NCBI GenBank assembly: GCA_002700385.1
Contig: PADC01000009.1
Span: forward strand, 2,094-66,093
Source of the DNA: Cycloclasticus sp.
GTDB lineage: Bacteria > Pseudomonadota > Gammaproteobacteria > Methylococcales > Cycloclasticaceae
Length of the DNA: 64,000 nt
Reading direction: 5' to 3'
Shown one piece after another: positions 13,559-31,490 of this stretch. The notes beneath the pieces were generated by a model that was not told the DNA's origin, ran no database searches, and saw nothing but the letters and a program-made list of their open reading frames with translations. The translations under genes were made by a program, and so were the position numbers. Position 1 is the first letter of the stretch, and each line of letters begins with the position of its first letter.

Positions 13559-13560
13559 CC

Positions 13561-14742: not shown

Positions 14743-14775
14743 ACACTTGGTCTTAACAATAAGAAGGTAAAAAAT

Positions 14776-16383: not shown

Positions 16384-16398
16384 TTGAGGGCAGACAAC

Positions 16399-18402
16399 AT
16401 GTTTAAAAAAGTACTGATTGCAAACCGTGGTGAAATTGCTTGTCGAGTGATTTCCACATTAAAAAAAATGGGCATAACCAGCGTCGCTGTTTATTCGGAT
16501 GCAGACCGTCATGCTCGTCACGTTAAATTAGCCGATGAGGCATACCATATTGGTGGTTCACGCCCGGATGAATCATACCTTAAAGCCGATCATTTACTCG
16601 CCTTAGCTAAGAAAGTAGGTGTTGATGCCATACACCCTGCTTACGGTTTTTTATCCGAAAACAGCGCGTTTGCTCGCGCTTGCCCTGAAGCAGGTATCAC
16701 TTTTATTGGCCCGTCAGCAGAGTCGATAGAAAAAATGGGAGCCAAAGATGCCGCAAAGGCCCTAATGGAAAACGCTAATGTGCCTGTTGTGCCAGGTTAT
16801 CATGGCGAAAATCAAGAACCTGATTACCTCCAAACGCAAGCCGAGAAGGTTGGTTTTCCATTGTTAATTAAAGCCGTTTCTGGTGGCGGTGGCAAAGGGA
16901 TGCGGGTTGTTAATTCCGCTAATGAATTTGCCGAATCACTCGACTCTGTTAAACGCGAAGCACTCAACGCATTTGCAGATGATCGTGTTTTATTAGAACG
17001 TTACATCAGTAAACCCCGTCATATTGAATTTCAAGTGTTTGGTGATTCACATGAAAATTATGTCCATTTACACGAACGTGAATGTTCATTACAACGCCGT
17101 CATCAAAAGATTATTGAGGAAACACCCTCCCCGTTCTTAAACGAACAAACACGTCAAGCAATGGGCGTAGCCGCCGTTAACGCAGCACGTGCTATTAATT
17201 ATTTAGGTGCGGGGACTATCGAATTTATCGTCGGTGAAGATCGTTCTTTCTACTTTATGGAAATGAACACACGCCTGCAAGTAGAACACCCCGTCACTGA
17301 AATGGTCACCGGGCAAGATTTGGTCGAGTGGCAAGTGCGCGTTGCCGCAGGTCAAGCATTGCCCTTAAAACAAGAACAAATCACCAGTAGTGGCCATTCG
17401 TTTGAAGCACGTGTCTATGCCGAAAACCCAAATAACTTATTTTTGCCATCAACGGGTCAATTACACCATCTACGTTTTCCTAAAAGCAGTCAACATCTGC
17501 GCATTGAAACCGGTGTAGAACAAGGCGATACCATCAGTGTGTTTTATGATCCCATGATCGCTAAATTAGTCGTTTGGGGTGAAGACCGTGAAGTAGCACG
17601 TGAGCGTTTGTTAAACGCTTTAGGCGACAGTGGCATTATTGGGGTAGAAAACAATATTGCTTTCTTAGAGACCCTAGCAACACACCCCGATTTTATCGGC
17701 AATCAAATTGATACTCAGTATATTGACAAAAAACTCGACACGCTTCTGTCCGATAGCGAGGTTGAACTCCCCGAAAAAGTCTTACTGGCCGCAGCGGTAA
17801 AAACCTTGCTTGACGGCAAACAAACCGTTGATGATATGGCGGCCATATCCGCGGATGGCAATTCCCCGTGGTTTGATACCACCGGCTGGCGCCCTAATGG
17901 GCAAAGTCAACGAAGCTTATTTTTTAATTATAAAGACGCTGATGACGTTGAAATCCAAGTCACTGAAAATGCCAATCATTTCATCTTTCATCTGGATAAT
18001 GACCTTGATGTCATTGCAGAATCTGAGAGTGATCAGGTTATTCGTTTGCAAATTAATGGCAGTTGGGAACGTTTCATTACCCTAAGGCATGAAGATCTAG
18101 TTCTCATTTCTTGGAAAAATCGCTGGTATGCTTTAACTGAAGTCAATCCATTCGAGCCCGATTTATCATCCATTGGCGGCGCTGCAAACATCATTGCTCC
18201 GATGCCCGGAAAGCTCTTGAAAGTCCTCGTATCAAACGATGATGCCGTCACCGAAGGACAAACCCTTGCCATTATTGAAGCCATGAAAATGGAACACACG
18301 CTAAGCGCCCCATTTGATGGCGAGGTAGACCAAGTCTTTTATTCAGAAGAAGACTTTGTCGAAGCTGATGCGACCTTAATTACCTTTAAGGATAAAAATT
18401 AA
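16399..18402 (+). CDS. liuD: Methylcrotonyl-CoA carboxylase, biotin-carrying (alpha) subunit
   Basis: Biotin carboxylase N-terminus KKVLIANRGEIACR, ATP-grasp core, C-terminal biotinyl-Lys motif IIEAMKMEH. ATG 16399 follows a GAGGG RBS. Confidence 0.9.
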   Translation: MFKKVLIANRGEIACRVISTLKKMGITSVAVYSDADRHARHVKLADEAYHIGGSRPDESYLKADHLLALAKKVGVDAIHPAYGFLSENSAFARACPEAGITFIGPSAESIEKMGAKDAAKALMENANVPVVPGYHGENQEPDYLQTQAEKVGFPLLIKAVSGGGGKGMRVVNSANEFAESLDSVKREALNAFADDRVLLERYISKPRHIEFQVFGDSHENYVHLHERECSLQRRHQKIIEETPSPFLNEQTRQAMGVAAVNAARAINYLGAGTIEFIVGEDRSFYFMEMNTRLQVEHPVTEMVTGQDLVEWQVRVAAGQALPLKQEQITSSGHSFEARVYAENPNNLFLPSTGQLHHLRFPKSSQHLRIETGVEQGDTISVFYDPMIAKLVVWGEDREVARERLLNALGDSGIIGVENNIAFLETLATHPDFIGNQIDTQYIDKKLDTLLSDSEVELPEKVLLAAAVKTLLDGKQTVDDMAAISADGNSPWFDTTGWRPNGQSQRSLFFNYKDADDVEIQVTENANHFIFHLDNDLDVIAESESDQVIRLQINGSWERFITLRHEDLVLISWKNRWYALTEVNPFEPDLSSIGGAANIIAPMPGKLLKVLVSNDDAVTEGQTLAIIEAMKMEHTLSAPFDGEVDQVFYSEEDFVEADATLITFKDKN

Positions 18403-18403
18403 T

Positions 18404-19306
18404 ATGTCTCATTCTTATCCAAAGCAGGTCAGAATTGTCGAGGTTTCTCCACGTGATGGTTTGCAAAATATCAAACAAAACGTGTCCACAGACGTTAAAG
18501 TTGCCTTAATAAATAAACTTTGTGATGCCGGCATCAACGATATTGAAGTCACCAGTTTTGTCAGCCCCAAATGGGTGCCTCAAATGGCAGACGCAGCAGA
18601 TGTTCTCAATCAGCTACCCTCTCGTGACGGGACATCCTATATCGTGCTAACACCGAACCTCCGCGGGTTTGACCGCGCCATTGAAAGTGGTGCCAAGGAA
18701 GTTGCCATTTTTGCCGCTGCGTCAGAAACATTCAGCCAAAAAAACACCAATTGCAGTATTACTGAATCACTGCAGCGCTTTGAACCCATCCTGCTCAAAG
18801 CTGCTGAGTTAAACATTCCCGTACGCGGTTATACATCCTGTGTCTTAGGTTGCCCTTACGAAGGTGATATTGATGTTTCCGAAGTCGTCCGCGTCAGCAA
18901 AGCACTAATAGATATGGGCTGTTACGAAGTTTCCTTAGGTGACACCATCGGCATAGGAACCCCGACTAAAGCACGCGACATGATATCGGCTGTTGTTCAT
19001 GAAGTGCCAGCAGAGAAGTTATCGCTCCATTTTCATGATACCCGTGGGCAAGCCTTAGCCAATATCTTTGCGTGCCTTGAATATGGCGTACCTAACATCG
19101 ATTCTTCAGTTGCTGGACTGGGTGGTTGCCCCTATGCAGCAGGGGCATCTGGCAACGTTTCAACCGAAGACGTTGTCTATATGTTACATGGCATGGGCAT
19201 TGAAACCGGTATCGATCTAGAAAAGCTTGTTGCCGCGGGGCACTACATCACCGCACAAATTGGCGGCCAAAATAACAGTAAAATTGGCGCCGTTTATAAA
19301 AATTAA
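18404..19306 (+). CDS. liuE: Hydroxymethylglutaryl-CoA lyase
   Basis: 300 aa. HMGL-like motifs VRIVEVSPRDGLQN, HFHDTRGQALAN and GLGGCPYA. Confidence 0.85.
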   Translation: MSHSYPKQVRIVEVSPRDGLQNIKQNVSTDVKVALINKLCDAGINDIEVTSFVSPKWVPQMADAADVLNQLPSRDGTSYIVLTPNLRGFDRAIESGAKEVAIFAAASETFSQKNTNCSITESLQRFEPILLKAAELNIPVRGYTSCVLGCPYEGDIDVSEVVRVSKALIDMGCYEVSLGDTIGIGTPTKARDMISAVVHEVPAEKLSLHFHDTRGQALANIFACLEYGVPNIDSSVAGLGGCPYAAGASGNVSTEDVVYMLHGMGIETGIDLEKLVAAGHYITAQIGGQNNSKIGAVYKN

Positions 19307-19318
19307 GAGGAGGAAAAC

Positions 19319-20020
19319 ATGAGGGGTTTCAATAAAGTTGTCTCCAGCTATCAAGAAGCCATGGCTGGGCTTTCAGACAACATGACCATTATTGCCGGTG
19401 GCTTTGGCCTGTGTGGTATTCCAGAAGGGCTGATTAAAGAAATTGAAAACATTGGCGCCAAGGGACTTACCGTCGTCTCTAATAACTGTGGCATTGATAA
19501 TTTTGGCTTAGGCATCCTTTTGAAGGATAAACAAATCAAAAAAATGGTGTCGTCTTATGTTGGTGAAAATGCCGAATTTGAACGCCAATACTTATCTGGT
19601 GAACTTGAGGTAGAACTGACACCACAAGGCACATTGGCTGAAAAAATGCGTGCAGGAGGCGCCGGTATCCCCGCTTTTTATACCGCCACCGGTGTTGGTA
19701 CGCCCGTTGCCGAAGGTAAAGAAGTTAAACAATTTAATGGCCGCGACTATATTTTAGAAGAAAGTGTCACCGGCGATTTTGCTATTGTCAAAGCATGGAA
19801 AGCCGACAAAATTGGTAACCTCATCTACCGCGATACCGCGATGAACTTCAATCCAATGGCTGCCACGGCAGGTAAAGTAACGGTCGCCGAGGTTGAAGAA
19901 ATTGTTGAGGTTGGCGAGCTTGACCCAAACCATATTCACACACCCGGTATTTATGTTAACCGCATTATCCAAGGGTCTTTCGAAAAGCGTATCGAAAAAA
20001 TCACCCTCGCCAAAAATTAA
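19319..20020 (+). CDS. scoA: 3-oxoacid CoA-transferase subunit A
   Basis: 233 aa. [13 protein letters not shown] motif typical of family I CoA-transferase A subunits. Confidence 0.85.
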
Positions 20021-20030
20021 GGAGCCCCTC

Positions 20031-20693
20031 ATGTCATTAAATCGTGACCAAATAGCCATGCGAGTGGCTCAAGAACTACAAGACGGTTATTACGTTAACC
20101 TAGGTATTGGTATTCCAACCTTAGTGGCCAACTATGTACCTAACGATATTGACGTGATGCTGCAATCAGAAAATGGCTTGCTCGGCATTGGCCCCTACCC
20201 AACCGAAGATCAAGTGGATGCCGATATGATTAACGCTGGCAAAGAAACCGTCACTGCTGCTGTAGGTGCCTCCATATTTTCATCGGCAGAAAGCTTTGCC
20301 ATGATTCGTGGTGGGCATGTTGACTTAACCGTACTCGGCGCATTTGAAGTGGATCAAAATGGCAATATCGCCTCTTACATGATCCCAGGGAAACTCGTCA
20401 AAGGGATGGGCGGTGCCATGGATTTAGTCGCAGGTGCAGAAAACATTATCGTCACCATGACCCATGCTGATAAACATGGAAACTCCAAACTACTCAACCA
20501 TTGCAACCTCCCCTTAACCGGGGTCAACTGCGTTAAACGTATTGTTACCGATTTAGCGGTCTTGGACATTAAAGAAGGCGCCTTTCACCTGCTTGAACGT
20601 GCTCCGGGCGTGAGCGTTGAAGAAATTCAACAAAAAACGGCAGGCCAACTCATCCTGCCTCAGAATGGCCAAGTACCCGAAATATCTGTTTAA
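20031..20693 (+). CDS. scoB: 3-oxoacid CoA-transferase subunit B
   Basis: 220 aa from MSLNRDQIA (GGAG RBS). Catalytic-Glu motif LQSENGLLGIGP. The longer track ORF from 19893 overlaps scoA. Confidence 0.85.
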   Translation: MSLNRDQIAMRVAQELQDGYYVNLGIGIPTLVANYVPNDIDVMLQSENGLLGIGPYPTEDQVDADMINAGKETVTAAVGASIFSSAESFAMIRGGHVDLTVLGAFEVDQNGNIASYMIPGKLVKGMGGAMDLVAGAENIIVTMTHADKHGNSKLLNHCNLPLTGVNCVKRIVTDLAVLDIKEGAFHLLERAPGVSVEEIQQKTAGQLILPQNGQVPEISV

Positions 20694-21166
20694 CAACCAA
20701 ATCAAGCCGTCAGAGAACTCTGGCTTTCAACGTTATTAGATACTCATCAGAGGGCTTACTTCGCCAACGGTACGCATTAACTAGCGCTGGTACATACTGG
20801 TACGTTGGCATCAGGTTTCTGCGTGCAACTCAATATCCTCAGTCAATAGCTACCCGGTTTTAGATAAATCATGCTGGTTGCCCGTTGATTCTAGCGCATC
20901 ACCTTAACGATTTGATCTAACAATTTCTTAAATTGAGGCTAAATACAGAACCCTAGAAGGCATTTTTTATTAAAGCGCATAAAGTAATATTACCCCTGTT
21001 TGCTGTGTTAATATCATAATACATGGAAGTAGTATCCGCCTATAAAGCCGAACCAAATTGTTTATCATTTGTGTGAGACTTATGCCCTTTGGGTATATAC
21101 AATTAATACGTGGACAATGGCTTCCGCTTATTAACATCCGCCTAGTTAAGCTGCGCTACCGCGCAA

Positions 21167-21268
21167 CCTAACAAGGCGCATGAAGCGGAAGAACCTTGAA
21201 GGAACATCCTAGCCCTGCTACAGTCATTCCTTCAAGAACCTACCGCTTATCCGCGATTGCCGTTATAT
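21167..21268 (+). repeat. attC site 1 (about 102 bp)
   Basis: CCTAACAAGGCG ... GATTGCCGTTATAT. The arms are complementary (AAGCGG ... CCGCTT; CTTGAAGGAA / TTCCTTCAAG). Confidence 0.7.
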
Positions 21269-21301
21269 TCAAACAGGCGCTCGATGTAAGAGGTTATATT
21301 T

Positions 21302-21892
21302 GTGAAAAAAGTGAAGTATCGTGAGATATCTCCAGCTGTAGGCATCACCGTAAAGCAGCTTGTAAAAACTCTGCCACCTGATCTCGCGGCTTTTTTAAGG
21401 AAAATTCGTAAACAAAAAAGGAAAGGTGCTCGTCCCAAACCATCTTCCAACCTTATTGATGAATCTAAAATAACAACGCCGGAATATCGCAGGAAGCTTA
21501 TTGATAAGGTTTGCGCTTTGATTGACGAGCGCCTCTTCGGGCGCCATGAGATGTGCAAGCAATGCGCTGTACTGCTGGAGCGGTCACTTATATCCTTAGG
21601 CTACGAAGCTAAGGCAGTGATTGGTATAGCAACGTACAGCAGTGGTTTTGAGTGGGAGCATAGTTGGGTCGTTGTGCAGGGAGAAGTAATAGACGTAAAT
21701 GCTGATTCCATGATCGAAAATCCCCATGTGCCTAAGGGCACGAACCCAAGATCCTACTGGGGTGTTGCAGACAAGCTCCCCTCAGATAGGAATTTTACAG
21801 TCACTACCGATGAACACGAATGGGACCCAGATATTGAGGAATACTGGTGGCCAGAACTTAAAGATTGGTTGAGCAGAAACAAGCCAAAATGA
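21302..21892 (+). CDS. Cassette ORF: hypothetical protein with a transglutaminase-like / papain-fold Cys-His-Asp pattern
   Basis: 196 aa, GTG start. Lys/Arg-rich N-terminal stretch (RKIRKQKRKGARPKP), then CKQCAVLLERSL ... EHSWVVVQGEVIDVNAD resembling a transglutaminase-core C..H..D arrangement. Confidence 0.4.
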   Translation: MKKVKYREISPAVGITVKQLVKTLPPDLAAFLRKIRKQKRKGARPKPSSNLIDESKITTPEYRRKLIDKVCALIDERLFGRHEMCKQCAVLLERSLISLGYEAKAVIGIATYSSGFEWEHSWVVVQGEVIDVNADSMIENPHVPKGTNPRSYWGVADKLPSDRNFTVTTDEHEWDPDIEEYWWPELKDWLSRNKPK

Positions 21893-21894
21893 AT

Positions 21895-21950
21895 ATAACA
21901 AAGGGCAGCAGAGCCGACAGTGTACGCGGTGGCTGTGCCCAGCGTTAGGC
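21895..21950 (+). repeat. attC site 2 (56 bp)
   Basis: ATAACAAAGGGCAGCAGAGCCGAC ... GGTGGCTGTGCCCAGCGTTAGGC. Imperfect palindrome with unpaired bases; begins 3 nt after the preceding stop. Confidence 0.8.
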
Positions 21951-21971
21951 GCTATGGAGTATAGAACTTAG

Positions 21972-22979
21972 ATGGATTTAGTTGACTGGTTATTTAACAA
22001 AGTAATTAGGTTATATGTAAAGTGCTTTTTAATCTTAGCTATACTTATGTTTGTTTTAACAAGTTTTGTTGAAGCCCATTTAATGAGTTACGTGGTTTTT
22101 GTTTGGACCACGATACATTTACTTCTCGTGTTTTTCGCTTTTTACTTTCATACCAGGCTTAAGCTTCTTATTAAAGATGATTTAAATAAGCTTGTTACAG
22201 TTATTTCTAGTAACAATATTAACAAAAAAAACGACCCAATTAGTGTGATATCGTTGTATCCATCGTATATCCCGGAAGAAATTAAAACAGTTGATACAAG
22301 TGCTAGAGTCGTTTTCGCTAGCTTAAAAGATTTTCCATTTGTCCATTGTATAGCTCGTACAATTCATAATTTTAGTTATTATCGATATGATTGGCTGAAA
22401 ATAGATAAATTAGAATTTGATGAATCTTTTGATTCTTTAAGAGTTGGTGATTTAATTCTTTACCATAATATGCGTTCAATTATTGGCAAAATCATACGTT
22501 TATTCACTAGATGTTACTGGGAACATACTGCAATGTATTTAGGTAATGGAGTTATAGTTGAAGCTGTACCTGCTGGTGTAATTGAATCAAACTTTAGCGA
22601 TTGGTTGTCTAATAATGATGTTGAACTTGCCATATTACGCCTAGAAATAGATAGAGAACAACAATCAAAAACCATTGAGTTTATGAAAAGTAGTGTTGGG
22701 AAAAAATATAACTATATGGGAGTAGTTAACAATTTTTGGGTGATCATTACTGGAAAATCATGCGATGGTTTAATGACACCACTGACATTTTTTACCAATT
22801 TATTACTGCTTGGCACAGTATACCTTTATTATTTTAATGTACCTGAACTTCCTAGAATTGGGCTGCTACTTTTAATATTTTCTTCACTATATATGTTTGA
22901 CTGTATATATCACTGGCTTGCTTATAGCCCCAGTTTAAATTTATTGTTTGAGAGTATAAATGAGAAATCCAGAAACTAA
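21972..22979 (+). CDS. Cassette ORF: membrane-anchored permuted papain-like (YiiX/NlpC-P60-like) putative amidase
   Basis: 335 aa. Hydrophobic helices at both N- and C-termini. Central GDLILYHN ... TRCYWEHTAMYLGNGVIVEAVPAGV resembles the YaeF/YiiX C92-type core. Very AT-rich. Confidence 0.45.
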   Translation: MDLVDWLFNKVIRLYVKCFLILAILMFVLTSFVEAHLMSYVVFVWTTIHLLLVFFAFYFHTRLKLLIKDDLNKLVTVISSNNINKKNDPISVISLYPSYIPEEIKTVDTSARVVFASLKDFPFVHCIARTIHNFSYYRYDWLKIDKLEFDESFDSLRVGDLILYHNMRSIIGKIIRLFTRCYWEHTAMYLGNGVIVEAVPAGVIESNFSDWLSNNDVELAILRLEIDREQQSKTIEFMKSSVGKKYNYMGVVNNFWVIITGKSCDGLMTPLTFFTNLLLLGTVYLYYFNVPELPRIGLLLLIFSSLYMFDCIYHWLAYSPSLNLLFESINEKSRN

Positions 22980-23172
22980 TCCTTTTTCATTGTTTTTTAA
23001 AGCTATTTCTGAAAATTACGCAGGTATTATCGCTATTATTCTTGTTGGTTCGGCATGTTTTTTGTGGCTACAGGAAAAGACTGTTCCGGATGCATTACAG
23101 AATTTGATTTTAATAGTTGTATCTTTTCTTTTTGGTCAAAAATCTAAAAATAATCAATCAGAAAGCGCATAA
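22960..23172 (+). CDS. Cassette ORF: small two-helix membrane protein
   Basis: 70 aa. Overlaps the previous ORF by 20 nt within the same cassette. Two hydrophobic segments (GIIAIILVGSACFLWL; LILIVVSFLFG). Confidence 0.4.
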   Translation: MRNPETNPFSLFFKAISENYAGIIAIILVGSACFLWLQEKTVPDALQNLILIVVSFLFGQKSKNNQSESA

Positions 23173-23268
23173 CAAGGCAATTATGGATGGGACGTCTAAA
23201 GCTTGGCTGACGCTCATTCTTCGCTAATTTTAGCCAAGCTTAATACGCCCCATATTGCGGCGTTATAC
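23168..23268 (+). repeat. attC site 3 (about 101 bp)
   Basis: CATAACAAGGCAATTATGG ... CCATATTGCGGCGTTATAC with a central AAGCTTGGCT / AGCCAAGCTT stem. The TAA stop of the 70-aa ORF lies in the TAAC box. Confidence 0.8.
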
Positions 23269-23285
23269 GTCAGCAAGGAATCAGT

Positions 23286-23672
23286 ATGATCGTAATATTT
23301 GGAATTAAAGAAAAACTTAATCCAATAAAGGCACAGCTCTCTGATGTTATTCATGGTTGCATGAAATCAGTCTTAGGTATGCCAGAGGATAAACGTGCAC
23401 ATCGATTTATACCAATGGATAAAGAAGATTTTTATTACCCTGGTGGTCGAAGTGATGCCTATACTGTTATAGAAATAAATATGATGGCTGGGCGTCAGGT
23501 GGAAACGCAAAAACAACTGATTAAAACTATTTTTCAAGAAATAGAAATCCAGCTTTCAATTGCTCCTATAGATATCGAAATAGTTATTAAAGAACAAGCT
23601 CCACACCAATGGGGGTTTAGAGGTATTACGGGTGACGAAGCCAATGACCTTAAATACAAAGTCAACGTATAA
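23286..23672 (+). CDS. Cassette ORF: tautomerase-superfamily protein (about 128-aa cis-CaaD/MSAD-like class)
   Basis: Pattern DVIHGCM ... PEDKRAHRFIPMDKEDFYYP ... YTVIEINMMAGRQVETQKQLIK ... HQWGFRG matches long tautomerase-family proteins. The N-terminus is MIVIF, so there is no Pro-1. Confidence 0.55.
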   Translation: MIVIFGIKEKLNPIKAQLSDVIHGCMKSVLGMPEDKRAHRFIPMDKEDFYYPGGRSDAYTVIEINMMAGRQVETQKQLIKTIFQEIEIQLSIAPIDIEIVIKEQAPHQWGFRGITGDEANDLKYKVNV

Positions 23673-23753
23673 CAAAAAAATCAAGTTCGCCAGCAAAAAC
23701 ACGCTGGCTGGGACGCGCAAAGAAACGCGCGCCCCTTATTTAAAACGTTAGGG
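23668..23753 (+). repeat. attC site 4 (86 bp, homogeneous subfamily)
   Basis: TATAACAAAAAAATCAAGTTCGCCAGC ... GCTGGCTGGGACGCGC ... GCGCGCCCCTTATTTAAAACGTTAGG. Near-identical to the sites at 24307 and 26044. Confidence 0.85.
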
Positions 23754-23768
23754 GTAAAACACTCACGG

Positions 23769-24290
23769 ATGAACATTACAGTTTCAACAAGTACAAACCC
23801 TATTGAGGCTCATATAATATGTGGGCGCTTGAAAGCGGAAGGCATCCCTGCTTTCGTAATCTTTCAACACCATATTTGGGCAGAATGGTGGATTTCAAAT
23901 GCAATAGGAGGTGTCAGAGTCCAAGTGCCACCCAACTTTTATCAGCAAGCGCAAACTGTTATTCAGAATATTAATTTGGGAGTTTATGAATTAACCCCCG
24001 ACAACACTACGTGGTCACCTTCTACACGGTGCCCAAAATGTAATTCATTAAGTATTAGCCATATTAACTGGCGTCGAAAAGTTGCACTTGTATTAGCTAT
24101 AACACTTCATTTGCCACTTCATCACACACAACACTTAATGAGGTGTGATATGTGCTCAAACAAGTGGATAGCAAGGGAACAACGAGGCTACCCTATTTAT
24201 TTTCCACTAATCGCAACAATCATTTTATTTGCTATTTTCTTTTCTCTTTATTCAATATTTGAACATTGGTGTACACTTCATTGCGATTAA
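23769..24290 (+). CDS. Cassette ORF: DUF2007-like domain + Cys4 zinc-ribbon + C-terminal TM helix
   Basis: 173 aa. N-terminal NPIEAHIICGRLKAEGIPAFV ... VRVQVP resembles DUF2007. CPKC ... CDMC pairs. Hydrophobic tail FPLIATIILFAIFFSLYSIF. Confidence 0.45.
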   Translation: MNITVSTSTNPIEAHIICGRLKAEGIPAFVIFQHHIWAEWWISNAIGGVRVQVPPNFYQQAQTVIQNINLGVYELTPDNTTWSPSTRCPKCNSLSISHINWRRKVALVLAITLHLPLHHTQHLMRCDMCSNKWIAREQRGYPIYFPLIATIILFAIFFSLYSIFEHWCTLHCD

Positions 24291-24306
24291 CTATTATGAG
24301 CAACAC

Positions 24307-24392
24307 CCTAACAAAAACATCAAGTTCGCCTGCAAACAAATGCTGGCTGGGACGCGCAAAGAGCTGCGCGCCCCTTATGTAAAACGTTATAT
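24307..24392 (+). repeat. attC site 5 (86 bp, homogeneous subfamily)
   Basis: CCTAACAAAAACATCAAGTTCGCCTGC ... GCTGGCTGGGACGCGC ... GCGCGCCCCTTATGTAAAACGTTATAT. Confidence 0.85.
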
Positions 24393-24435
24393 GCCTCAAG
24401 CTAAATCAGAATCATAAACCAAAAAAGGAAAATTT

Positions 24436-24900
24436 ATGTTCAGCTTAAAAAACAACTTAGTATTTATAATCTGTTTTTTGCTTTTGTCTAATGCATACTC
24501 CGCAGAGGTCACTGAAGCCGGCGTCGAGGAGCTTATGCATAAAGTCGATATCGCAGTGAACAAACTAGACGTGGATGGGGTTGGTGCTGTTTTGAGCGAC
24601 AACGTAAAGATTACGATGAATATCGATGTTCAAGGCCAAAAGCAAGTGTTGCGACCTTCAAAGCAAGAGTATTTGGCAATGCTTAAGCAGGGCTGGACGA
24701 TGGGTACAGATTATAGCTACAGTCGATCTGGCATAAATATTTCGATATCAAATAATAAAGCCTTTGTAACAACTAATGTAATTGAAAGTATGACTATTCA
24801 AGGTCGGGTAATTTCTGGGACCTCAAGAGAGGAAGCGGTTGTAGAGAGCGTGGGCAATAGTATTCTAGTTACAAAGATTATTGGTTATACAAGTTTGTAG
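24436..24900 (+). CDS. Cassette ORF: secreted small protein, possibly SnoaL/DUF4440 (NTF2-like) fold
   Basis: 154 aa. Signal peptide MFSLKNNLVFIICFLLLSNAYS/AE. The fold guess rests only on size and the VEELMHKVDIAVNKLDVDGVGAVLSDNV pattern. Confidence 0.4.
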   Translation: MFSLKNNLVFIICFLLLSNAYSAEVTEAGVEELMHKVDIAVNKLDVDGVGAVLSDNVKITMNIDVQGQKQVLRPSKQEYLAMLKQGWTMGTDYSYSRSGINISISNNKAFVTTNVIESMTIQGRVISGTSREEAVVESVGNSILVTKIIGYTSL

Positions 24901-24906
24901 TTGGCA

Positions 24907-25036
24907 TATAACAAGTTGCTCAAAGTTACTCCGCCAGCAGAGCTGGCTCCGCGGGACCGCTATTGCGTCGCTTGTTTTGTGTTTGTGTAACACAAAAGCA
25001 ACCAACCCAACGCGGCCCCTTAGCAAAGCGTTATGT
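24907..25036 (+). repeat. attC site 6 (about 130 bp)
   Basis: TATAACAAGTTGCTCAAAG ... CCTTAGCAAAGCGTTATGT. The outer arms are complementary and the central part is long and variable. Confidence 0.7.
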
Positions 25037-25045
25037 GTTGTAAAT

Positions 25046-25426
25046 ATGGAAGAATTATCTAAATCATCCAAAATAAAAAGCATTATTAGTGCATTAGTTG
25101 CACTTGCTGTATTAATACCGGCATTACTATTAAATACTTATGTTACCGATCTATACGTACTGCCTAAAAGTTTGCCAATTTTAAGCATTGTTCTGTTTTT
25201 TCTTATCATTCGTTTTGTTTACATGCTAACCAAGTTAACACGCCATGAGAAAATGACATTTATACTTACAATACTTGGTTTACTTTCTTTTATTGTTGGC
25301 GTGTTAGTGGATTGGAAGCATATTAAATGGATAGATAATGCAGGACTACTAATATTTCTACCGTTTTTACCGGCAGTGGTATACGCTCTTTGGGTAACAA
25401 GAAAACCTCCTAATGAAAACACATAA
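25046..25426 (+). CDS. Cassette ORF: small multi-pass membrane protein
   Basis: 126 aa from MEELSKSS. Four hydrophobic segments. The track ORF start at 24881 reads through the attC and is rejected. Confidence 0.5.
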   Translation: MEELSKSSKIKSIISALVALAVLIPALLLNTYVTDLYVLPKSLPILSIVLFFLIIRFVYMLTKLTRHEKMTFILTILGLLSFIVGVLVDWKHIKWIDNAGLLIFLPFLPAVVYALWVTRKPPNENT

Positions 25427-25510
25427 CAAATCGTCCAACCCGACCGTTTTATACGCCGTTTCGCTTCGCTACACTCTGTATAAAACGGCCGGTTAACTCA
25501 AACGTTAGCT
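25422..25510 (+). repeat. attC site 7 (about 89 bp)
   Basis: CATAACAAATCGTCCAACCCGACCGTTTTATAC ... GTATAAAACGGCCGGTTAACTCAAACGTTAGCT. The TAA stop lies in the TAAC box. Confidence 0.8.
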
Positions 25511-25523
25511 GTAGAAAATAAAT

Positions 25524-26048
25524 ATGATTATCAGCAATAATTTAAAGATAAGAGCAATAAAAGAAAAAGACCTTGATATAGTCTTTTCATTTCTAAGTGA
25601 CTTTGAGAGTAAAGGGCAGTTTTTGCCCATTGAAATTCAATCCGAAGTGAATTTTAGAAACGAGTATGAAACCAATGGTTTTATAACTGAAAAAGCATCG
25701 AGATATGTTCTCGTATCAAAAGATGAAGAAGTTATCGGATTGACATGGGTGTTTACGTCAGTACCGTACTTTGATGCTGTAGAAATCGGATACCATGTTT
25801 TTGATAAAAGCAGTAGAAATAAAGGATATGCAACGGAAGCTGTTAACGCTTTAGTAAATTACTTATTTGAGTCAAAACAATTAAACCGTATAGAAATACG
25901 TATTGCCGTGGGTAACACTGCTTCGGAGAAAGTTGCTCAAAAAAATGGTTTTCTACACGAGGGTATTAGTAGGCAGGCTGCCTTCTCAAAAGGGAAGCAT
26001 CACGATATGCATGTATATTCTAAATTACGTTCAGAGTGGCACAGCTAA
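25524..26048 (+). CDS. Cassette ORF: GNAT-family N-acetyltransferase (RimJ/RimL-like)
   Basis: 174 aa. Acetyl-CoA binding region SRNKGYATEAVNALVNYLF and C-terminal KNGFLHEGISRQA typical of RimJ-like GNATs. Confidence 0.75.
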   Translation: MIISNNLKIRAIKEKDLDIVFSFLSDFESKGQFLPIEIQSEVNFRNEYETNGFITEKASRYVLVSKDEEVIGLTWVFTSVPYFDAVEIGYHVFDKSSRNKGYATEAVNALVNYLFESKQLNRIEIRIAVGNTASEKVAQKNGFLHEGISRQAAFSKGKHHDMHVYSKLRSEWHS

Positions 26049-26129
26049 CAAAAAAATCAAGTTCGCCAGCAAAAATACGCTGGCTGGGTCGCGGAAAAAG
26101 CCCCGCGCCCCTTATTTAAAACGTTAAAT
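26044..26129 (+). repeat. attC site 8 (86 bp, homogeneous subfamily)
   Basis: GCTAACAAAAAAATCAAGTTCGCCAGC ... GCTGGCTGGGTCGCGG ... CCGCGCCCCTTATTTAAAACGTTAAAT. Confidence 0.85.
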
Positions 26130-26148
26130 TCACAAGGGATCAATTTTT

Positions 26149-27216
26149 ATGCAGGTATCAAAAAAAGAAGGCCGAGTCCTTGATCGTGCTATTAATAACT
26201 GGGTTGAATCCAATGTTATTTCTGAACCGGAAAGCCAGAAGCTTAAGCGCTCCTATGAAGTAACTTCGTTTGACTGGAAGCGAGTAGCAAAATACTCATT
26301 TTGGCTAGCAATTTCTTGTATCGTTATTTCCATATCATCTGCTATAGCTGACAAATGGCTCATTGAGATATTTAAAAATCTGTTTAAAGCTCCAGATTCA
26401 ATAAAATGTATGAGCTTCGCTGTATTTTCAGGAGTACTATATTTCTTGGGTATTAGAAGAAAAAATCAATACCCTGACAAAGTTTATAGTAATGAAGCAA
26501 TATTCTTTCTAGGTATAGCTACCACAGCAGTTTCTATTGCATTTCTGGGTAAGGCAATGGATACAGGATCAGGACATTTTTCTATTTTATTACTACTTGC
26601 TGCATTTATTTATGGCCTATTAGGGCTATGGTTTCCATCAAAGCTAGTATGGCTATTTTCGTTATTATCATTGGGTAGTTGGTTTGGTGCTGAAACTAGT
26701 TATGCATCTGGCTGGGGAGCCTATTATCTTGGTATGAACTACCCCTTACGATTTGTACTATTTGGTTTGGCCTTGATTTTTTGTGGCTCATACGCATTCA
26801 ATCAATGGCAAAGTAGAAGTGAGTTTTTAAGGCCAACAAGAGCTATTGGGCTACTCTATTTGTTCATTGCTCTTTGGATTATGTCTATTTTTGGAAATTA
26901 TGGAGATCCCGAAATTTGGGAAAGAGCGAAACAAATTGAGCTATTCCATTGGTCAATACTTTTCGGTGCGGCGTCAGTTGGAGCTATATATCATGGCGTG
27001 AAATACGACGATGGAATGACAAGAGGTTTTGGTCTTACATTTATCTTCATAAACCTCTACACGAGATTTTTTGAATACTTCTGGGAAGGTACACATAAAG
27101 CAATATTCTTTGCTCTTTTAGCTTTAAGTTTTTGGTATTTAGGAAGTAAGGCAGAGAAAATATGGCAGTTAAGTTTAGTCAAAAATTTAACAAGTCAAAG
27201 CACTCGGACGCAGTAA
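26149..27216 (+). CDS. Cassette ORF: polytopic membrane protein (DUF2157-like?)
   Basis: 355 aa. About 40-aa soluble N-terminus followed by some nine hydrophobic helices. The 3' end runs into the attC left arm. Confidence 0.5.
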   Translation: MQVSKKEGRVLDRAINNWVESNVISEPESQKLKRSYEVTSFDWKRVAKYSFWLAISCIVISISSAIADKWLIEIFKNLFKAPDSIKCMSFAVFSGVLYFLGIRRKNQYPDKVYSNEAIFFLGIATTAVSIAFLGKAMDTGSGHFSILLLLAAFIYGLLGLWFPSKLVWLFSLLSLGSWFGAETSYASGWGAYYLGMNYPLRFVLFGLALIFCGSYAFNQWQSRSEFLRPTRAIGLLYLFIALWIMSIFGNYGDPEIWERAKQIELFHWSILFGAASVGAIYHGVKYDDGMTRGFGLTFIFINLYTRFFEYFWEGTHKAIFFALLALSFWYLGSKAEKIWQLSLVKNLTSQSTRTQ

Positions 27217-27243
27217 ACTGCGCCGGTGTTTGAGGCGTTAGCT
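27186..27243 (+). repeat. attC site 9 (58 bp)
   Basis: TTTAACAAGTCAAAGCACTCGGACGCAG taaa CTGCGCCGGTGTTTGAGGCGTTAGCT. Imperfect palindrome with unpaired bases. Confidence 0.75.
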
Positions 27244-27260
27244 GCATAAAAGGTACTTCG

Positions 27261-27944
27261 ATGAGCTATGATCCTGAGTCGAAAATTATTAATTCTTGGA
27301 AGAAAAATGTAGATCCATGGATTCGTGCTGTACGTGACCATGAAATTGAAACTAGACAGCTCGTAACCAATAAGGCGATTGTTGATGCTATTCTTTATCT
27401 ATCACCAAAAAGTGTGATCGATATTGGGTGTGGTGAAGGATGGCTGGTAAGGGAGTTAGTCGGAAGAGGAGTCAATACACTGGGCATTGATGTAATTCGG
27501 GAGTTCGTAGAATCTGCAAAAAAAGAAAATAGTGGCCGTTATCGTGTGCTAAATTACGATGAATTATCTTATCAAACATTAGGTGAACGATTTGATATGA
27601 TAGTCTGCAATTTCTCATTGTTCGGATCTAAATCCGTTGAAAGTGTCTTTCATTCAACAGCTGAAGTATTAAATCCAAATGGAGTGCTCGTTATTCAAAC
27701 ACTTCACCCAGATAACCACCAAGGAGAAGTGAGTGCATCTGAGGGTTGGGTCGAAGGTTCATGGTCGGGTTTTAGTAGGGAGTTCTGTGACCCGGCACCT
27801 TGGTACTATCGACCTTTGGAGAGCTGGATTAAATTATTCACCGATTCAGGATTCGAAATGCCGAAGATAATTGAACCGGCTAATCCTATAACAGGAAAGC
27901 CAGCATCAATAATTTTTGTAGGAAATCATGTGGCTAACTGTTAG
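27261..27944 (+). CDS. Cassette ORF: class I SAM-dependent methyltransferase
   Basis: 227 aa. SAM motif I VIDIGCGEGWL and post-I acidic residue (LGIDV). Confidence 0.75.
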   Translation: MSYDPESKIINSWKKNVDPWIRAVRDHEIETRQLVTNKAIVDAILYLSPKSVIDIGCGEGWLVRELVGRGVNTLGIDVIREFVESAKKENSGRYRVLNYDELSYQTLGERFDMIVCNFSLFGSKSVESVFHSTAEVLNPNGVLVIQTLHPDNHQGEVSASEGWVEGSWSGFSREFCDPAPWYYRPLESWIKLFTDSGFEMPKIIEPANPITGKPASIIFVGNHVANC

Positions 27945-27968
27945 ACCACTATCGAAGGAGCTCACAAA

Positions 27969-28373
27969 ATGATCAGATTTATAGGCGGATGCCTATGCAA
28001 AGCCGTTCGTTACGAGACGACGGCTGATCCATTGAATCAGAGAGTTTGCCATTGTATGGAATGTCAAAAAGCTATTGGGGCTGCTTTTAATGCTCGTGTA
28101 TTAATGCGTATTGAAGATGTTTCTGTCACAGGGCCAATTAGCACGTTTTACTCATCAGAAACCCTTGAACGAGGCTCTTGCTCGCAATGTGGTTCAAGTA
28201 TTTTTTCTCGACGCTCTTCCGCTGGAGTCATCGGGTTAACGGTTGGCAGTCTTGATGAGCCATCACTTTTTAATCCAGATATGCATTTTTGGGTATCGTC
28301 TAAACAGCCTTGGCTGGAAATCGCCGATGACCTCCCTCAATATCTGGAAGGCCCTCCATATAAAGGTTATTGA
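27969..28373 (+). CDS. Cassette ORF: GFA-family (CENP-V/glutathione-dependent formaldehyde-activating-like) zinc protein
   Basis: 134 aa. Cys pattern GGCLCKAVRY ... CHCMECQK ... CSQCGS typical of the GFA family. Shares a cassette with the methyltransferase (no attC between them). Confidence 0.7.
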   Translation: MIRFIGGCLCKAVRYETTADPLNQRVCHCMECQKAIGAAFNARVLMRIEDVSVTGPISTFYSSETLERGSCSQCGSSIFSRRSSAGVIGLTVGSLDEPSLFNPDMHFWVSSKQPWLEIADDLPQYLEGPPYKGY

Positions 28374-28397
28374 ATTCATGAATTGCCTCAAAAATGA

Positions 28398-28453
28398 CCT
28401 AACAATCAGTTGCAGCGGATTCGTTTCGCTCCCCGCTGAACTTGGCGTTAGGA
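28398..28453 (+). repeat. attC site 10 (56 bp)
   Basis: CCTAACAATCAGTTGCAGCGGATTCG tttcg CTCCCCGCTGAACTTGGCGTTAGGA. Confidence 0.75.
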
Positions 28454-28460
28454 ACTAATC

Positions 28461-29048
28461 ATGGATTCGAGTTTGAAGCTATTTTTTAGCGGGGTGGCAA
28501 TAATTCTTACGTTTGTCGCTTTTGTACCTTATATCCGTTCTATACTTACCGGTGTTACAAGGCCGCATGTGTTTTCATGGGTTATTTGGGGTACAACCAC
28601 CATCATAGTTTTCTTTGCTCAACTTGATGCAAAAGGTGGTATTGGTGCTTGGCCAATTGGCGTTTCTGGTGCCATCACCATATTTATAGCGGTTCTGGCT
28701 TTTCTAAAGCGCTCTGACATTTCAATAACACGGGCTGACTGGTTGTTTTTTTCATCAGCACTCGCTTCAATACCGTTTTGGTATTTTACCTCTGATCCTG
28801 TTTGGGCTGTTATTGTATTGACGGTAGTAGATCTACTAGGGTTTGGCCCAACTATCCGTAAAGCCTACGATTTTCCATATGATGAAAACATACCATTTTT
28901 CTTATTGTTCATGGCAAGAAACGCTTTTGCTTTACTGGCCTTAGAGCACTATTCGGTGGCAACCACTTTATTCCCATTATCGGTTAGCAGTGCCTGTTTA
29001 TTTTTGCTTGTCATGGTTAGTTATAGACGTAAAGTTGTACGCGTCTAA
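28461..29048 (+). CDS. Cassette ORF: multi-pass membrane protein of unknown function
   Basis: 195 aa, six hydrophobic segments. The TAA stop is embedded in GTCTAACAAGG, the left box of a truncated attC. Confidence 0.5.
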   Translation: MDSSLKLFFSGVAIILTFVAFVPYIRSILTGVTRPHVFSWVIWGTTTIIVFFAQLDAKGGIGAWPIGVSGAITIFIAVLAFLKRSDISITRADWLFFSSALASIPFWYFTSDPVWAVIVLTVVDLLGFGPTIRKAYDFPYDENIPFFLLFMARNAFALLALEHYSVATTLFPLSVSSACLFLLVMVSYRRKVVRV

Positions 29049-29090
29049 CAAGGCCAAGCAAAGGGCCAACAAGGAAAGATCTTTCCGAAA
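29044..29090 (+). repeat. Truncated or degenerate terminal attC (left box only)
   Basis: GTCTAACAAGGCC matches the left box of other sites, but no complementary right arm or CGTTA end follows. It contains an unrelated perfect 14-bp palindrome GGAAAGATCTTTCC (29074-29087). Confidence 0.35.
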
Positions 29091-29095
29091 TCAAT

Positions 29096-29163
29096 ACGTT
29101 CTTCCTCTAATCAATCGTTTTAGCTAAATGTATTGGTCGAGCTTTATTTTCTTCGTATACTTG
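29096..29163 (+). repeat. 68-bp direct repeat, copy A (contains a sigma70-like promoter)
   Basis: About 93% identical to 30798-30865. TTGGTC (29134-29139), 17 nt, TATACT (29157-29162). Confidence 0.7.
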
Positions 29164-29358: not shown

Positions 29359-30714
29359 ATGCTATCTCAGAAAATAGCAAAGTCCACTTTTATTCTTCGT
29401 TTCTATCGACATCGCGATGCGAATATTGGTGACGGTATCGATGAATTACGCCATGCCGTGGGCTTGTTTGACGAAACATTATCAGCGTTTAGTTATGGAG
29501 GCATTGTCACCAGCGCGTCTGGTAAGAAATTACACATTCGCAAGTTAAGCGATGAAGGTGCCGCCGACATATTATTTAAAGCAAAATTAATATGGCAGCC
29601 TCTACATGATCAATTAAATGATTTTATTGAAAATCGTTCAGAGCAAGAGACAAGTTTGCTTTTGGAAGCACTGGTAAAAGAAAATGTAAAATTACTTGGG
29701 CTGATGAATGAACTAACAAATCACTTAGAGAATAAAGCAAAGAGTAGAACCCATATCCTGCAAGGGCTGCAAACGTTTGTTGTCGTGATGATTTTTTTCT
29801 CCTTTATTTTTGCAACCTTACGGTTGTATCGTCGAGAAAATTATTACAATCGATTAATGGAAAAGACAGCGGACCTTATTATTGGGGTTGATGTAGAAAC
29901 GGCACTGACAACTTTTGTTAGTGCTTCAGTTTTTGAAATGCTTGGCTATGGAGAGCAACACTATATAAAAAAGCCTGTTAGCCTATTATTTGCAAATGAA
30001 TCAAAAGCTGTTTTTTCAGAAATTTTAGAAACAGTTGATAAAACAGGTCGGCTTAGTGCTGAGCGGTGTGAGGTGCAACTACGGAAGAGCGATGGAAGCA
30101 TTTTAACTGCTGATATTATTATGCAAGTAGCCACCAGTGAAGACGGTAAGAGTAGGGAGATTAGTGCTGATATTAGAGATATATCTGAACGAAAAGCGAC
30201 AGAAAACGCACTGATGGAATTAGCACATAAAGACTCATTAACGCAGCTGCCTAATCGGGTGTTATTTTACGAAATGGCAGAACATGCGCTTCAAAAAGCA
30301 AAGCGTTACAAACAATCACTAGCAATCCTATTTATTGATTTAGATGGCTTTAAATCTGTTAATGATAACTTTGGGCATGATATTGGTGATGAGGTACTTA
30401 TTACAACAGCAACTAAACTGAAAGCCTGTTTAAGAGAGTCTGACAACGTTTCACGTGTCGGTGGTGATGAGTTTTTAGTCTTATTGGAAGATGTAAAAAA
30501 GAGTGATGACGTTATTCATGTTGCAAAAGAAATTATCCGCTCAGTATCTGAAATTATTGAAATAAATAATTATAGCTGTCAAGTTGGTGTCAGCATTGGT
30601 GTTGCGCTATATCCAACTCACGCTCTTAATGTTGAAGGGTTAGTAAAAAAAGCTGATGAAGCAATGTACAAAGTAAAAGGCAAAGGGAAGAATAGCGTGC
30701 GCTTTGCTCAATAG
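29359..30714 (+). CDS. Diguanylate cyclase (PilJ/NarX-type sensor remnant - TM - PAS - GGDEF), apparently 5'-truncated
   Basis: RVGGDEFLVLL active site with a RESD I-site 5 residues upstream. The sensor P-box NIAGRQRMLSQKIAK starts before the first ATG. The frame is open only to a TAG at 29260-29262, with no leader or TM1. Confidence 0.75.
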   Translation: MLSQKIAKSTFILRFYRHRDANIGDGIDELRHAVGLFDETLSAFSYGGIVTSASGKKLHIRKLSDEGAADILFKAKLIWQPLHDQLNDFIENRSEQETSLLLEALVKENVKLLGLMNELTNHLENKAKSRTHILQGLQTFVVVMIFFSFIFATLRLYRRENYYNRLMEKTADLIIGVDVETALTTFVSASVFEMLGYGEQHYIKKPVSLLFANESKAVFSEILETVDKTGRLSAERCEVQLRKSDGSILTADIIMQVATSEDGKSREISADIRDISERKATENALMELAHKDSLTQLPNRVLFYEMAEHALQKAKRYKQSLAILFIDLDGFKSVNDNFGHDIGDEVLITTATKLKACLRESDNVSRVGGDEFLVLLEDVKKSDDVIHVAKEIIRSVSEIIEINNYSCQVGVSIGVALYPTHALNVEGLVKKADEAMYKVKGKGKNSVRFAQ

Positions 30715-30797: not shown

Positions 30798-30865
30798 TAC
30801 GTTCTTCTTCTAATCAATCGTTTTAACTAAATGCATGGGTCGAGCTTTATTTTCTTCGTATACTT
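30798..30865 (+). repeat. 68-bp direct repeat, copy B
   Basis: Matches 29096-29163 with about 5 mismatches. TGGGTC, 17 nt, TATACT (30859-30864), about 137 nt upstream of the peroxidase start. Confidence 0.7.
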
Positions 30866-31001
30866 TCTTTCTGTTAGGCTATCAGTTTGATTTAGACCAC
30901 TATATGTAAGTATGTTTAAAGAAGTGTTATATTCAAACGAAGATTCTATTGGCCTGATTGGGGCTCTTAAAATACGCTGTTAGCAATGCATGGGGATTAG
31001 T

Positions 31002-31490
31002 ATGGAAGCCGATATATACAATTTCACCTTGAGTGATATCGACAATAATGATTTTTCCTTTGAAGCACTTAAAGGAAAGGTGTTACTGATTGTCAATACT
31101 GCCAGTAAATGTGGTTTTACGCCGCAATATGAAGGACTGGAAACGCTTTATAAACAATACAAGTCTCAAGGCTTGGAAATTCTTGGCTTTCCCTGTGATC
31201 AGTTTTTACATCAAGAGCCTGGCAATGAGGCTGAGATAAAATCATTTTGCAGCACGGAATATGCGGTTAGCTTTCCATTATTCAGTAAAGTGGCTGTTAA
31301 TGGAGCTGACACAACGCCTTTATACCGTTACTTAAAAAAGGCTGCACCGGGTGCATTGGGCAGTCAAGCCATTAAATGGAATTTCACTAAGTTTTTAGTG
31401 AACCGGCAAGGGGACGTCGTTAAACGTTATCCTTCTATCAGTAAACCAGAAACAATCGCCACCGATATAGAGGCTTTGCTTTCAAGCTAA
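31002..31490 (+). CDS. Glutathione peroxidase family protein
   Basis: GPx motifs LIVNTASKCGFTPQY (peroxidatic Cys), LGFPCDQF and KWNFTKFLV. An alternative ATG exists at 30990. Confidence 0.85.
   Translation: MEADIYNFTLSDIDNNDFSFEALKGKVLLIVNTASKCGFTPQYEGLETLYKQYKSQGLEILGFPCDQFLHQEPGNEAEIKSFCSTEYAVSFPLFSKVAVNGADTTPLYRYLKKAAPGALGSQAIKWNFTKFLVNRQGDVVKRYPSISKPETIATDIEALLSS

Follow-up and report, generated by a model that had tools for sequence, protein, structure and literature searches.

The stretch analysed here is a 64,000-nucleotide piece of a Cycloclasticus sp. genome (GCA_002700385.1, contig PADC01000009.1, positions 2,094 to 66,093; hereafter the window, in whose coordinates features are given), and its subject is an array of integron gene cassettes that lies directly downstream of the liu/scoAB operon and is co-oriented with it. 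A leucine/isovalerate catabolic cluster together with the 3-oxoacid CoA-transferase subunits spans 12398-20693 and encodes an acyl-CoA dehydrogenase, a thiolase, a carboxyltransferase, a biotin carboxylase, an HMG-CoA lyase, ScoA and ScoB. On the 3' side of the array are a PAS-GGDEF gene (29359-30714) and a glutathione peroxidase gene (30990-31490), and Pfam searches agree with the earlier description of the liu/sco and peroxidase flanks. Between the liu/sco and PAS-GGDEF flanks the open reading frames (ORFs) are short, all on the plus strand and separated by ten sites, and their greater AT content relative to the catabolic genes, noticed in the original prediction, is borne out by G+C values of 0.31-0.43 in the array versus 0.44-0.48 in the liu/sco genes. 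That prediction had proposed an integrase-less array of about ten cassettes. The segment 21137-28453 is indeed an integron gene-cassette array with all cassettes on the plus strand, although the count needs correction to nine complete cassettes (21263-28447), one truncated cassette without an ORF and a trailing gene for a 195-aa protein. We propose that it is probably what is left of a sedentary chromosomal integron of a Cycloclasticus species after loss of the integrase gene.

Each complete cassette is apparently promoter-less and consists of one or two ORFs followed by an attC hairpin site. The features of the locus are listed below, with E-values from R1, a covariance model described further on.

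20894-20980, minus strand: delta-intI relic with the 29 N-terminal codons of intI; codons 14 and 30 are in-frame stops
20981-21136, unstranded: intI-attI intergenic region, whose 3' end is the left half of attI, TTCCGCTTATTAACA
21137-21262, plus strand: truncated ORF-less cassette, the interior and 3' arm of an attC of about 150 bp; holds site 1 (21166-21268)
21263-21944, plus strand: cassette 1, ORF 21302-21892, 196 aa, weakly transglutaminase-like (Pfam)
21893-21950, plus strand: attC of cassette 1 (R1 E 2.8e-5; fold)
21945-23262, plus strand: cassette 2, ORFs 21972-22979 (335 aa, C92 permuted-papain amidase, Pfam) and 22960-23172 (70 aa)
23167-23268, plus strand: attC of cassette 2 (R1 E 2.9e-7)
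23263-23747, plus strand: cassette 3, tautomerase-family ORF 23286-23672
23667-23753, plus strand: attC of cassette 3 (R1 E 1.3e-5)
23748-24386, plus strand: cassette 4, ORF 23769-24290, 173 aa, DUF2007-like N-terminus (Pfam)
24306-24392, plus strand: attC of cassette 4 (R1 E 3.3e-5; family of sites 4, 5 and 8)
24387-25030, plus strand: cassette 5, ORF 24436-24900, 154 aa, no family
24906-25036, plus strand: attC of cassette 5 (site 6), 131 bp with a long variable region (fold, weak R1)
25031-25503, plus strand: cassette 6, ORF 25046-25426, 126-aa membrane protein
25421-25509, plus strand: attC of cassette 6 (R1 E 7.3e-7), 94% identical to a Cycloclasticus P1 attC
25504-26123, plus strand: cassette 7, GNAT acetyltransferase ORF 25524-26048 (Pfam Acetyltransf_3, E 2e-22)
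26043-26129, plus strand: attC of cassette 7 (R1 E 3.4e-5)
26124-27237, plus strand: cassette 8, ORF 26149-27216, 355-aa membrane protein
27185-27243, plus strand: attC of cassette 8 (R1 E 3.1e-7)
27238-28447, plus strand: cassette 9, S-adenosylmethionine (SAM) methyltransferase 27261-27944 and GFA-family protein 27969-28373 (Pfam)
28397-28453, plus strand: attC of cassette 9 (R1 E 1.1e-8)
28448-29090, plus strand: trailing unit, ORF 28461-29048, 195-aa membrane protein, no family

The ten sites, numbered 1-10 from the 5' end, are present where the original prediction had placed them and share one plan: a TAAC 5' end, a GTTA 3' end, plus-strand orientation and a length of 57-131 bp, inside the range of about 57-141 bp for attC sites. 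The TAA of the 5' box doubles as the stop codon of the preceding ORF at four of the ten, and ORFs start 8-44 nt after the preceding site. The terminal 7-mers, R'' (RYYYAAC) and R' (GTTRRRY), follow the consensus wholly or mostly (e.g. ACCTAAC/GTTAGGA and ATTTAAC/GTTAGCT). The array contains ten copies of the strict pattern TAACAA..CGTTA; two more stand elsewhere in the window and none on the minus strand, and shuffling predicts about 4.8 occurrences over the whole window and both strands. Folding of the bottom strand, the check proposed for each site, revealed an R-box stem separated by an unpaired spacer from an L-box stem that carries bulged bases, and the energies lie at z = -1.9 to -6.9 relative to shuffles. 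Sites 4, 5 and 8 form one attC family (86-91% alike) with a branched variable region and an L box AAATAAG/CTT[G]ATTT carrying an extrahelical G; beyond this family the sites are mostly heterogeneous in sequence and conserved in structure.

An Rfam search of the window returned one tRNA only, and because Rfam holds no attC family we built a surrogate covariance model, R1. RNAalifold predicted no consensus structure on MAFFT alignments of attC sites, so base pairs were taken from column statistics and then tested. The training set comprised 28 attC sites from other contigs (the Cycloclasticus P1 array, an intI-linked array and metagenome arrays) and excluded any site with BLAST similarity to the window array; as these sites were chosen by the same TAACAA..CGTTA ends, only the interior of the model is an independent test. 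Within the training set the L box shows compensatory changes at 7/7 pairs, 86% of the cells of its helix are paired versus 24-42% when the partner is slid, and none of 500 shuffles reached this covariation. Run unfiltered over all 64 kb, R1 matched sites 2, 3, 4, 5, 7, 8, 9 and 10 with the expected ends exact (E = 1e-8 to 3.4e-5), and apart from these eight it found nothing better than E 0.27. It also detects attC sites in untrained integrase-linked arrays (L213, L214 and L218), on the strand opposite intI, and thus behaves as an attC detector. Site 6 scores only 9.4 bits (E 3.4); it lies between ORFs and folds strongly (-32.2 kcal/mol, z -5.9). The poor score of site 1 (13.3 bits, E 0.27) is explained by its being the remnant of a truncated attC, as described below.

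As the original prediction stated, no tyrosine recombinase is encoded in the window, which extends 21 kb upstream and 35 kb downstream of the array without an integrase. A tblastn search with an approximate IntI1 query gave no window match; unlike IntI1, a Cycloclasticus IntI exposed a relic of intI. The site 4/5/8 attC family was found by metagenome scan on at least 118 contigs, three of which (L160, L167 and L198) end in an integron-integrase gene divergent from the cassettes. On the names borne by near-identical core proteins, the host is Cycloclasticus. One homologue of the integrase carries the annotation Cycloclasticus integron integrase (P0055); the contig on which it lies, L211, holds a complete integron, and complete integrons occur in Cycloclasticus metagenome-assembled genomes (MAGs; P0055/P0062 on L211 and L214). 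A literature search on Cycloclasticus integrons gave nothing specific. Residues 1-30 of P0055 match 20980-20894 on the minus strand at 53% identity (E 0.002), and by the same tblastn every other window match was at E 0.38 or worse. Translation of the stub gives MRFNKKCLLGFCI*PQFKKLLDQIVKVMR*, versus MRFNNKQSSDGVAFRPQSKRLLDQVAEVMRYYHY in P0055; similarity stops thereafter, and the roughly 310 remaining intI codons are absent from the window.

The DNA around the stub is homologous to the same complete integron. Blastn aligns 20886-21136 with L211 at 77% over 163 nt (E 1e-19) and 86% over 43 nt (E 2.6e-6), with an insertion of about 50 nt in the platform relic of the window. From the intI start codon to the first cassette, L211 reads ..CAT..GTTAATATCATAATACATGGAAGTACTATCCGCCTATA..TTCCGCTTATTAACACTG|TTA.., and the core TTCCGCTTATTAACACTG|TTA is identical in L211 and in the sister strains L086, L088 and L090, whose strain-specific cassettes begin at CTG|TTA. 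Judged by sequence, TTCCGCTTATTAACACTG|TTA is the predicted attI of the former platform. The CTG|TTA crossover of the sister strains is absent from the window. What is left of the platform is thus the predicted attI, in part, and the promoter region of intI, with intI itself cut to a 29-codon stub. The original prediction had offered, as an alternative, the distal part of an integron separated from its platform; this does not hold, as the platform relic lies directly upstream of the start it gave for the array and, with attI and the intI start both there, it is the proximal end that is present here rather than a distal fragment.

The missing crossover belongs to a second deletion. Between two ATTAACA repeats, 68 bp present in L088 are absent from the window; with them went the attI crossover, a hairpin of 50 nt and the 5' arm ACCTAACGGCAATCGCGGAT of an attC of about 150 bp. 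The intact cassette, 200 bp long and without an ORF, occurs twice in L088 (11108-11311 and 11769-11969), and the window matches only its last 136 bp. It consists almost wholly of hairpins (bottom-strand folds of -72 and -82 kcal/mol) and could be a structured RNA or a recombination accessory. With the attI crossover and the 5' arm of the first attC lost, new insertions at the head of the window array would probably be blocked, while cassettes could still be excised or shuffled between those attC sites that are intact. The first 50-nt hairpin of the 200-bp cassette (GGTCTGCGCCGC...GCGGCACAGACC) also heads the first cassette of a second group of strains, type B below.

Comparison with other arrays points to the attC and attI sites as the places where cassettes have been joined. 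The tautomerase of cassette 3 is identically encoded in Cycloclasticus sp. P1 (CP003230), in a different array beside ribonucleotide-reductase genes. Cassette 3 DNA is 99.6% identical over 499 bp to that genome (L002 9976-10474), whereas the upstream attC and the downstream cassette differ, the switch falling exactly at G|TT on both sides. Among the strains and with P1, homology starts or stops precisely at the G|TT of sites 3, 4, 9 and 10 and at attI, and in L087 and L089 other cassettes are joined to the methyltransferase-GFA cassette exactly at G|TT of site 9. On the left, strain homology to the window ends at 21134-21136; on the right it starts again no more than about a dozen bases upstream of G|TT of site 9 or 10, or at G|TT itself, and junction alignments put the actual switch at G|TT. 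Such breakpoints bear the signature of integron-integrase recombination, by which the cassettes at this locus have been exchanged at attC and attI.

Public assemblies were looked up with the window ScoB and the 195-aa protein, and more than 40 contigs were read. They represent one chromosomal locus of conspecific strains with five array types, and intI is found in none of them. From attI to the peroxidase gene the types are as follows.

Type A: this window
Type B: 247-aa ORF, 195-aa ORF
Type C: Mrr-like nuclease, ion channel, methyltransferase-GFA, 195-aa ORF
Type D: ORF-less mini-cassette, DUF4160, mini-cassette, 338-aa ORF, 195-aa ORF
Type E: DUF2127, methyltransferase-GFA, 195-aa ORF, GGDEF

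The arrays hold 2-11 cassettes, their differences are concentrated at the attI-proximal end, and the location between scoB and the peroxidase gene is the same in every context seen. The methyltransferase-GFA pair is one unit common to types A, C and E. The 195-aa gene is present in every strain and begins at a cassette boundary: |TTAG..ACTAATCATGG is identical in the window, L086 and L088, each of which has a different attC before it. The original prediction had asked whether scoB is followed directly by the peroxidase gene where the array is absent; in relatives that lack the large array it is not, and all of these keep the relic, one or more cassettes and the 195-aa gene. A genome-contig search with ScoB yielded only distant relatives at no more than 83% identity (Rheinheimera and Alishewanella) and no useful empty site; in these genera scoB and the glutathione peroxidase gene are 2-5 kb apart with unrelated genes between them.

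All strains carry the same collinear relic. It diverges by 2-6% between strains, versus 0.06-1.2% for the flank, and the two run parallel pair by pair, as expected of an old, vertically inherited deletion. Between L086 and L089, identity is 99.6% in the flank and 99.1% in the relic, and still their attI-proximal cassettes are not the same. As a separate observation, the last 45 nt or so before attI (within 20960-21136) show about eight substitutions in the type-C lineage (L087/L092), far above the surrounding flank, which suggests relaxed constraint or recombination with another attI allele. Type C (L087/L232) also carries an attI-proximal 557-aa Mrr-like nuclease followed by a 235-aa ion-channel protein, absent from the window, which could be a defence pair.

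A cluster of attC sites that lacks an integron-integrase (CALIN) is defined by at least two attC sites without a clustered integron-integrase, with a distance threshold of 4 kb (10 kb also tried; Cury et al. 2016, PMC4889954). The CALIN assignment of the original prediction is sound, given eight to ten attC sites and no integrase in the window. The array is not a complete integron: in place of an intact IntI there are 29 codons with two stops. Sedentary chromosomal integrons are marked by one chromosomal location across the strains of a species (or by a number of attC sites above 19) and by relatively homogeneous attC sites; here the location is the same in all contexts seen, whereas the arrays hold 2-11 cassettes and sites 4, 5 and 8 alone make up a homogeneous family. 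Integrase loss from a resident integron would have left the array directly 3' of the liu/scoAB operon, and it is this origin, a sedentary chromosomal integron minus its integrase gene, that we regard as probable. Cassette gain and loss probably continued after the intI deletion, since a shared deletion, a relic that diverged with its flank and differing attI-proximal cassettes together point to turnover after intI loss. That turnover would have been catalysed in trans by an IntI encoded elsewhere, acting on the orphan attI and attC sites, which is the simplest reading; related Cycloclasticus genomes have a complete integron with the identical attI core. Such an integrase might be encoded elsewhere in the cell or brought in transiently. 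Expression of the cassettes would probably depend on read-through from scoB or on internal promoters. We advance more tentatively, at slightly less than an even chance, the proposal that the orphan attI platform is still a live cassette-acquisition site in the marine Cycloclasticus population, serviced in trans, with the array as a transcriptional appendage of liu/scoAB.

Several observations weigh against these interpretations. The IntI stub match (E 0.002) is marginal by itself and convinces only because contiguous DNA homology accompanies it. Chimeric joins within repeated attC sites may occur in metagenome contigs. A consensus scan of 20600-21400 gave no sigma-70-like promoter, but such a scan could miss a weak or non-canonical promoter or scoB read-through. 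In Xanthomonas, arrays reportedly become static with the loss of intI (10.1101/2025.06.18.660453), so that the dynamics proposed here would depart from the usual pattern. Look-ups through P0089, P0062, P0234, P0232 and the arsJ locus of P0301 for an intact intI of the same genome or species led only to other species or loci or to loci without intI. Finally, the diversity of the arrays could be older than the deletion, had homologous recombination spread the delta-intI allele, a rival that keeps its weight because those look-ups led to no intact intI of the species.

This rival supposes a frozen array, whose diversity arose with an intact intI, after which the delta-intI allele or the arrays spread by homologous recombination with no integrase acting since. 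It agrees with the finding that Xanthomonas strains with one intI lesion usually have identical arrays (10.1101/2025.06.18.660453), with the failure to tie an intact intI to the species of the window in the look-ups of related IntI and arsJ loci, and with flanks that are 98.8-99.9% identical and offer ample substrate for homologous recombination. However, the greater divergence of the relic, mirrored pair by pair in the flank, indicates vertical inheritance rather than a recent sweep, and L086 and L089 differ in their attI-proximal cassettes despite being nearly identical around them. Swapping whole arrays would also need an intI-proficient source with the same flanks, and none is among the more than 40 contigs. 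We therefore think a frozen array unlikely, while giving it more credit than any other alternative.

Much less probable is a CALIN formed de novo by a trans-acting integrase that inserted cassettes at a secondary, attG-type site after scoB where no platform had ever existed. Integrase-mediated insertion outside att sites is documented (PMC4889954; 10.1101/2022.09.11.507474), and the window lacks an integrase. But about 250 bp immediately upstream are homologous, in the right order and orientation, to a complete Cycloclasticus integron from the intI 5' end across the intergenic region to attI, which contradicts this origin, as insertion at a secondary site would not bring platform sequence. A rearrangement that displaced the distal part of an array, leaving an intact intI and attI elsewhere in the genome, is slightly more improbable still. 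About half of CALINs are in genomes with an IntI elsewhere, and insertion sequences often split integrons (PMC4889954); here, however, the proximal end is what stands at the locus, the stub contains stop codons and ends after 29 codons, no insertion sequence or transposase was seen among the scanned flanking genes, and the locus is the same in all strains. That the sites, as intergenic imperfect palindromes, are a dispersed element of the repetitive extragenic palindromic (REP) or bacterial interspersed mosaic element type, one condition under which the original prediction would have failed, can be practically dismissed, because they coincide with G|TT recombination breakpoints between strains, have no copies outside the array in 64 kb, lie on a single strand, conserve structure over heterogeneous sequences and belong to a family that adjoins integron-integrase genes.

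A CALIN is an already known kind of element, and what this one adds is a traceable origin and a testable hint of activity in trans. Like other CALINs it has at least two attC sites with cassettes, no nearby integrase, mostly unknown cargo and no resistance genes (PMC4889954). In genomes CALINs outnumber complete integrons; integrase loss is one proposed origin, the origin is unknown for about 95%, and an intI pseudogene is recognisable in only 15 of 279 by the criterion of more than 50% coverage of a C-terminal profile (PMC4889954). In contrast, a 29-codon N-terminal stub and the attI region survive here and the origin can be followed by DNA homology; such a stub fails a C-terminal profile criterion, so standard pipelines would report no pseudogene. 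The nearest analogues are the ilvD-linked integrons of Xanthomonas (Gillings et al. 2005, as cited in 10.1101/2025.06.18.660453), which likewise stand by a metabolic gene at one chromosomal site, with an intI truncated or deleted in whole lineages and uncharacterised cassettes. They differ in that the same Xanthomonas lesion usually means the same array, whereas here one deletion accompanies five arrays. In cassette insertion at attG sites (10.1101/2022.09.11.507474), IntI acting in trans also produces integrase-less chromosomal cassettes, at a non-att site rather than at the attI of a decayed platform as proposed here.

The complete integrons of Cycloclasticus MAGs (L211 and L214) share with this locus the attI core, identical in its sister strains, an intergenic region 77-86% identical and the same attC type, as well as divergent intI and cassettes. 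Unlike the window they have an intact 338-aa IntI and lie beside arsJ/GAPDH rather than scoB, and their flanking genes are absent from the window. The Vibrio superintegron, with its VCR repeats, is a chromosomal array of more than 100 co-oriented cassettes with partly homogeneous attC sites and variation among strains. Our array resembles it in chromosomal location, cassette orientation, partial attC homogeneity (sites 4, 5 and 8) and strain-to-strain variation, and differs in having 2-11 cassettes instead of more than 100, no integrase, no detected toxin-antitoxin cassettes and mostly heterogeneous attC sites.

At this locus the position of the lost integrase gene can be fixed with an uncertainty of a few bases, and the genus also contains a cognate integron that is complete. 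Since such a traceable relic, too short for standard pseudogene screens, is missed by them, a DNA-level search for relics of attI and the intI 5' end might explain many other 'orphan' arrays. If turnover did follow integrase loss, integrase-less arrays would be active parts of the cassette pool, not fossils. If the platform is moreover still live, the locus would provide natural, population-level evidence that CALINs arising by integrase loss are not dead ends.

The cargo of the window array (tautomerase, GNAT acetyltransferase, methyltransferase, GFA protein and membrane proteins) is ordinary for environmental cassettes. The original prediction had raised phage defence as a possible function; PADLOC gave only a generic methyltransferase-domain match among the window cassettes and no recognisable phage-defence system, and neither resistance genes nor toxin-antitoxin cassettes were detected in this cargo. 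Cassette 9 is apparently a fusion of two cassettes. Between the methyltransferase stop and the GFA start (27936-27950) lies GGCTAACTGTTAGAC, an R'' box abutting an R' box with no hairpin, which looks like the scar of an attC whose interior has been deleted. Among annotated proteins, Alcanivorax and Halomonas have GFA proteins of at least 90% identity. A terminal attC after the 195-aa ORF (29043-29162) is not established: the region has a TAAC box at its start but a weak fold and no R1 match.

The PAS-GGDEF gene in the 3' flank lies on a 1703-bp segment with 68-bp direct repeats at both ends (29095-29162 and 30798-30865; 94% identical). Array types B, C and D lack this segment and keep a single copy of the 68-bp repeat, so that the segment was either lost by recombination between the repeats or gained by another mechanism. 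Directly after the second repeat stands CTG|TTAGGC, which resembles the attI crossover. In the 5' flank, a hairpin at 20687-20748 overlaps the scoB stop codon in an attC-like layout (GTTTAAC...GTTATTA). It appeared plausible by eye as an extra attC and was rejected, since R1 gives no match and the retrieved loci contain nothing related; the hairpin may act as scoB terminator or be a terminator-like structure. The stretch between this hairpin and the intI stub (20749-20893, given as 190 bp) gave no matches.

Other integrase-less arrays occur in the genus. Cycloclasticus sp. P1 (L002; CP003230, 934-955 kb) carries, beside its ribonucleotide-reductase genes, a second such array with at least ten model-supported attC sites, one cassette of which encodes an 827-aa MmeI-like type IIG restriction-modification protein; an attI relic of the window type was not found at L002. 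In another Cycloclasticus MAG (L226, 11750-16148), a four-site integrase-less array beside hmp/Rrf2 includes GmrSD-like and PIN-domain genes. With this further case, integrase-less arrays seem to be common in Cycloclasticus, some of them with defence-type cargo.

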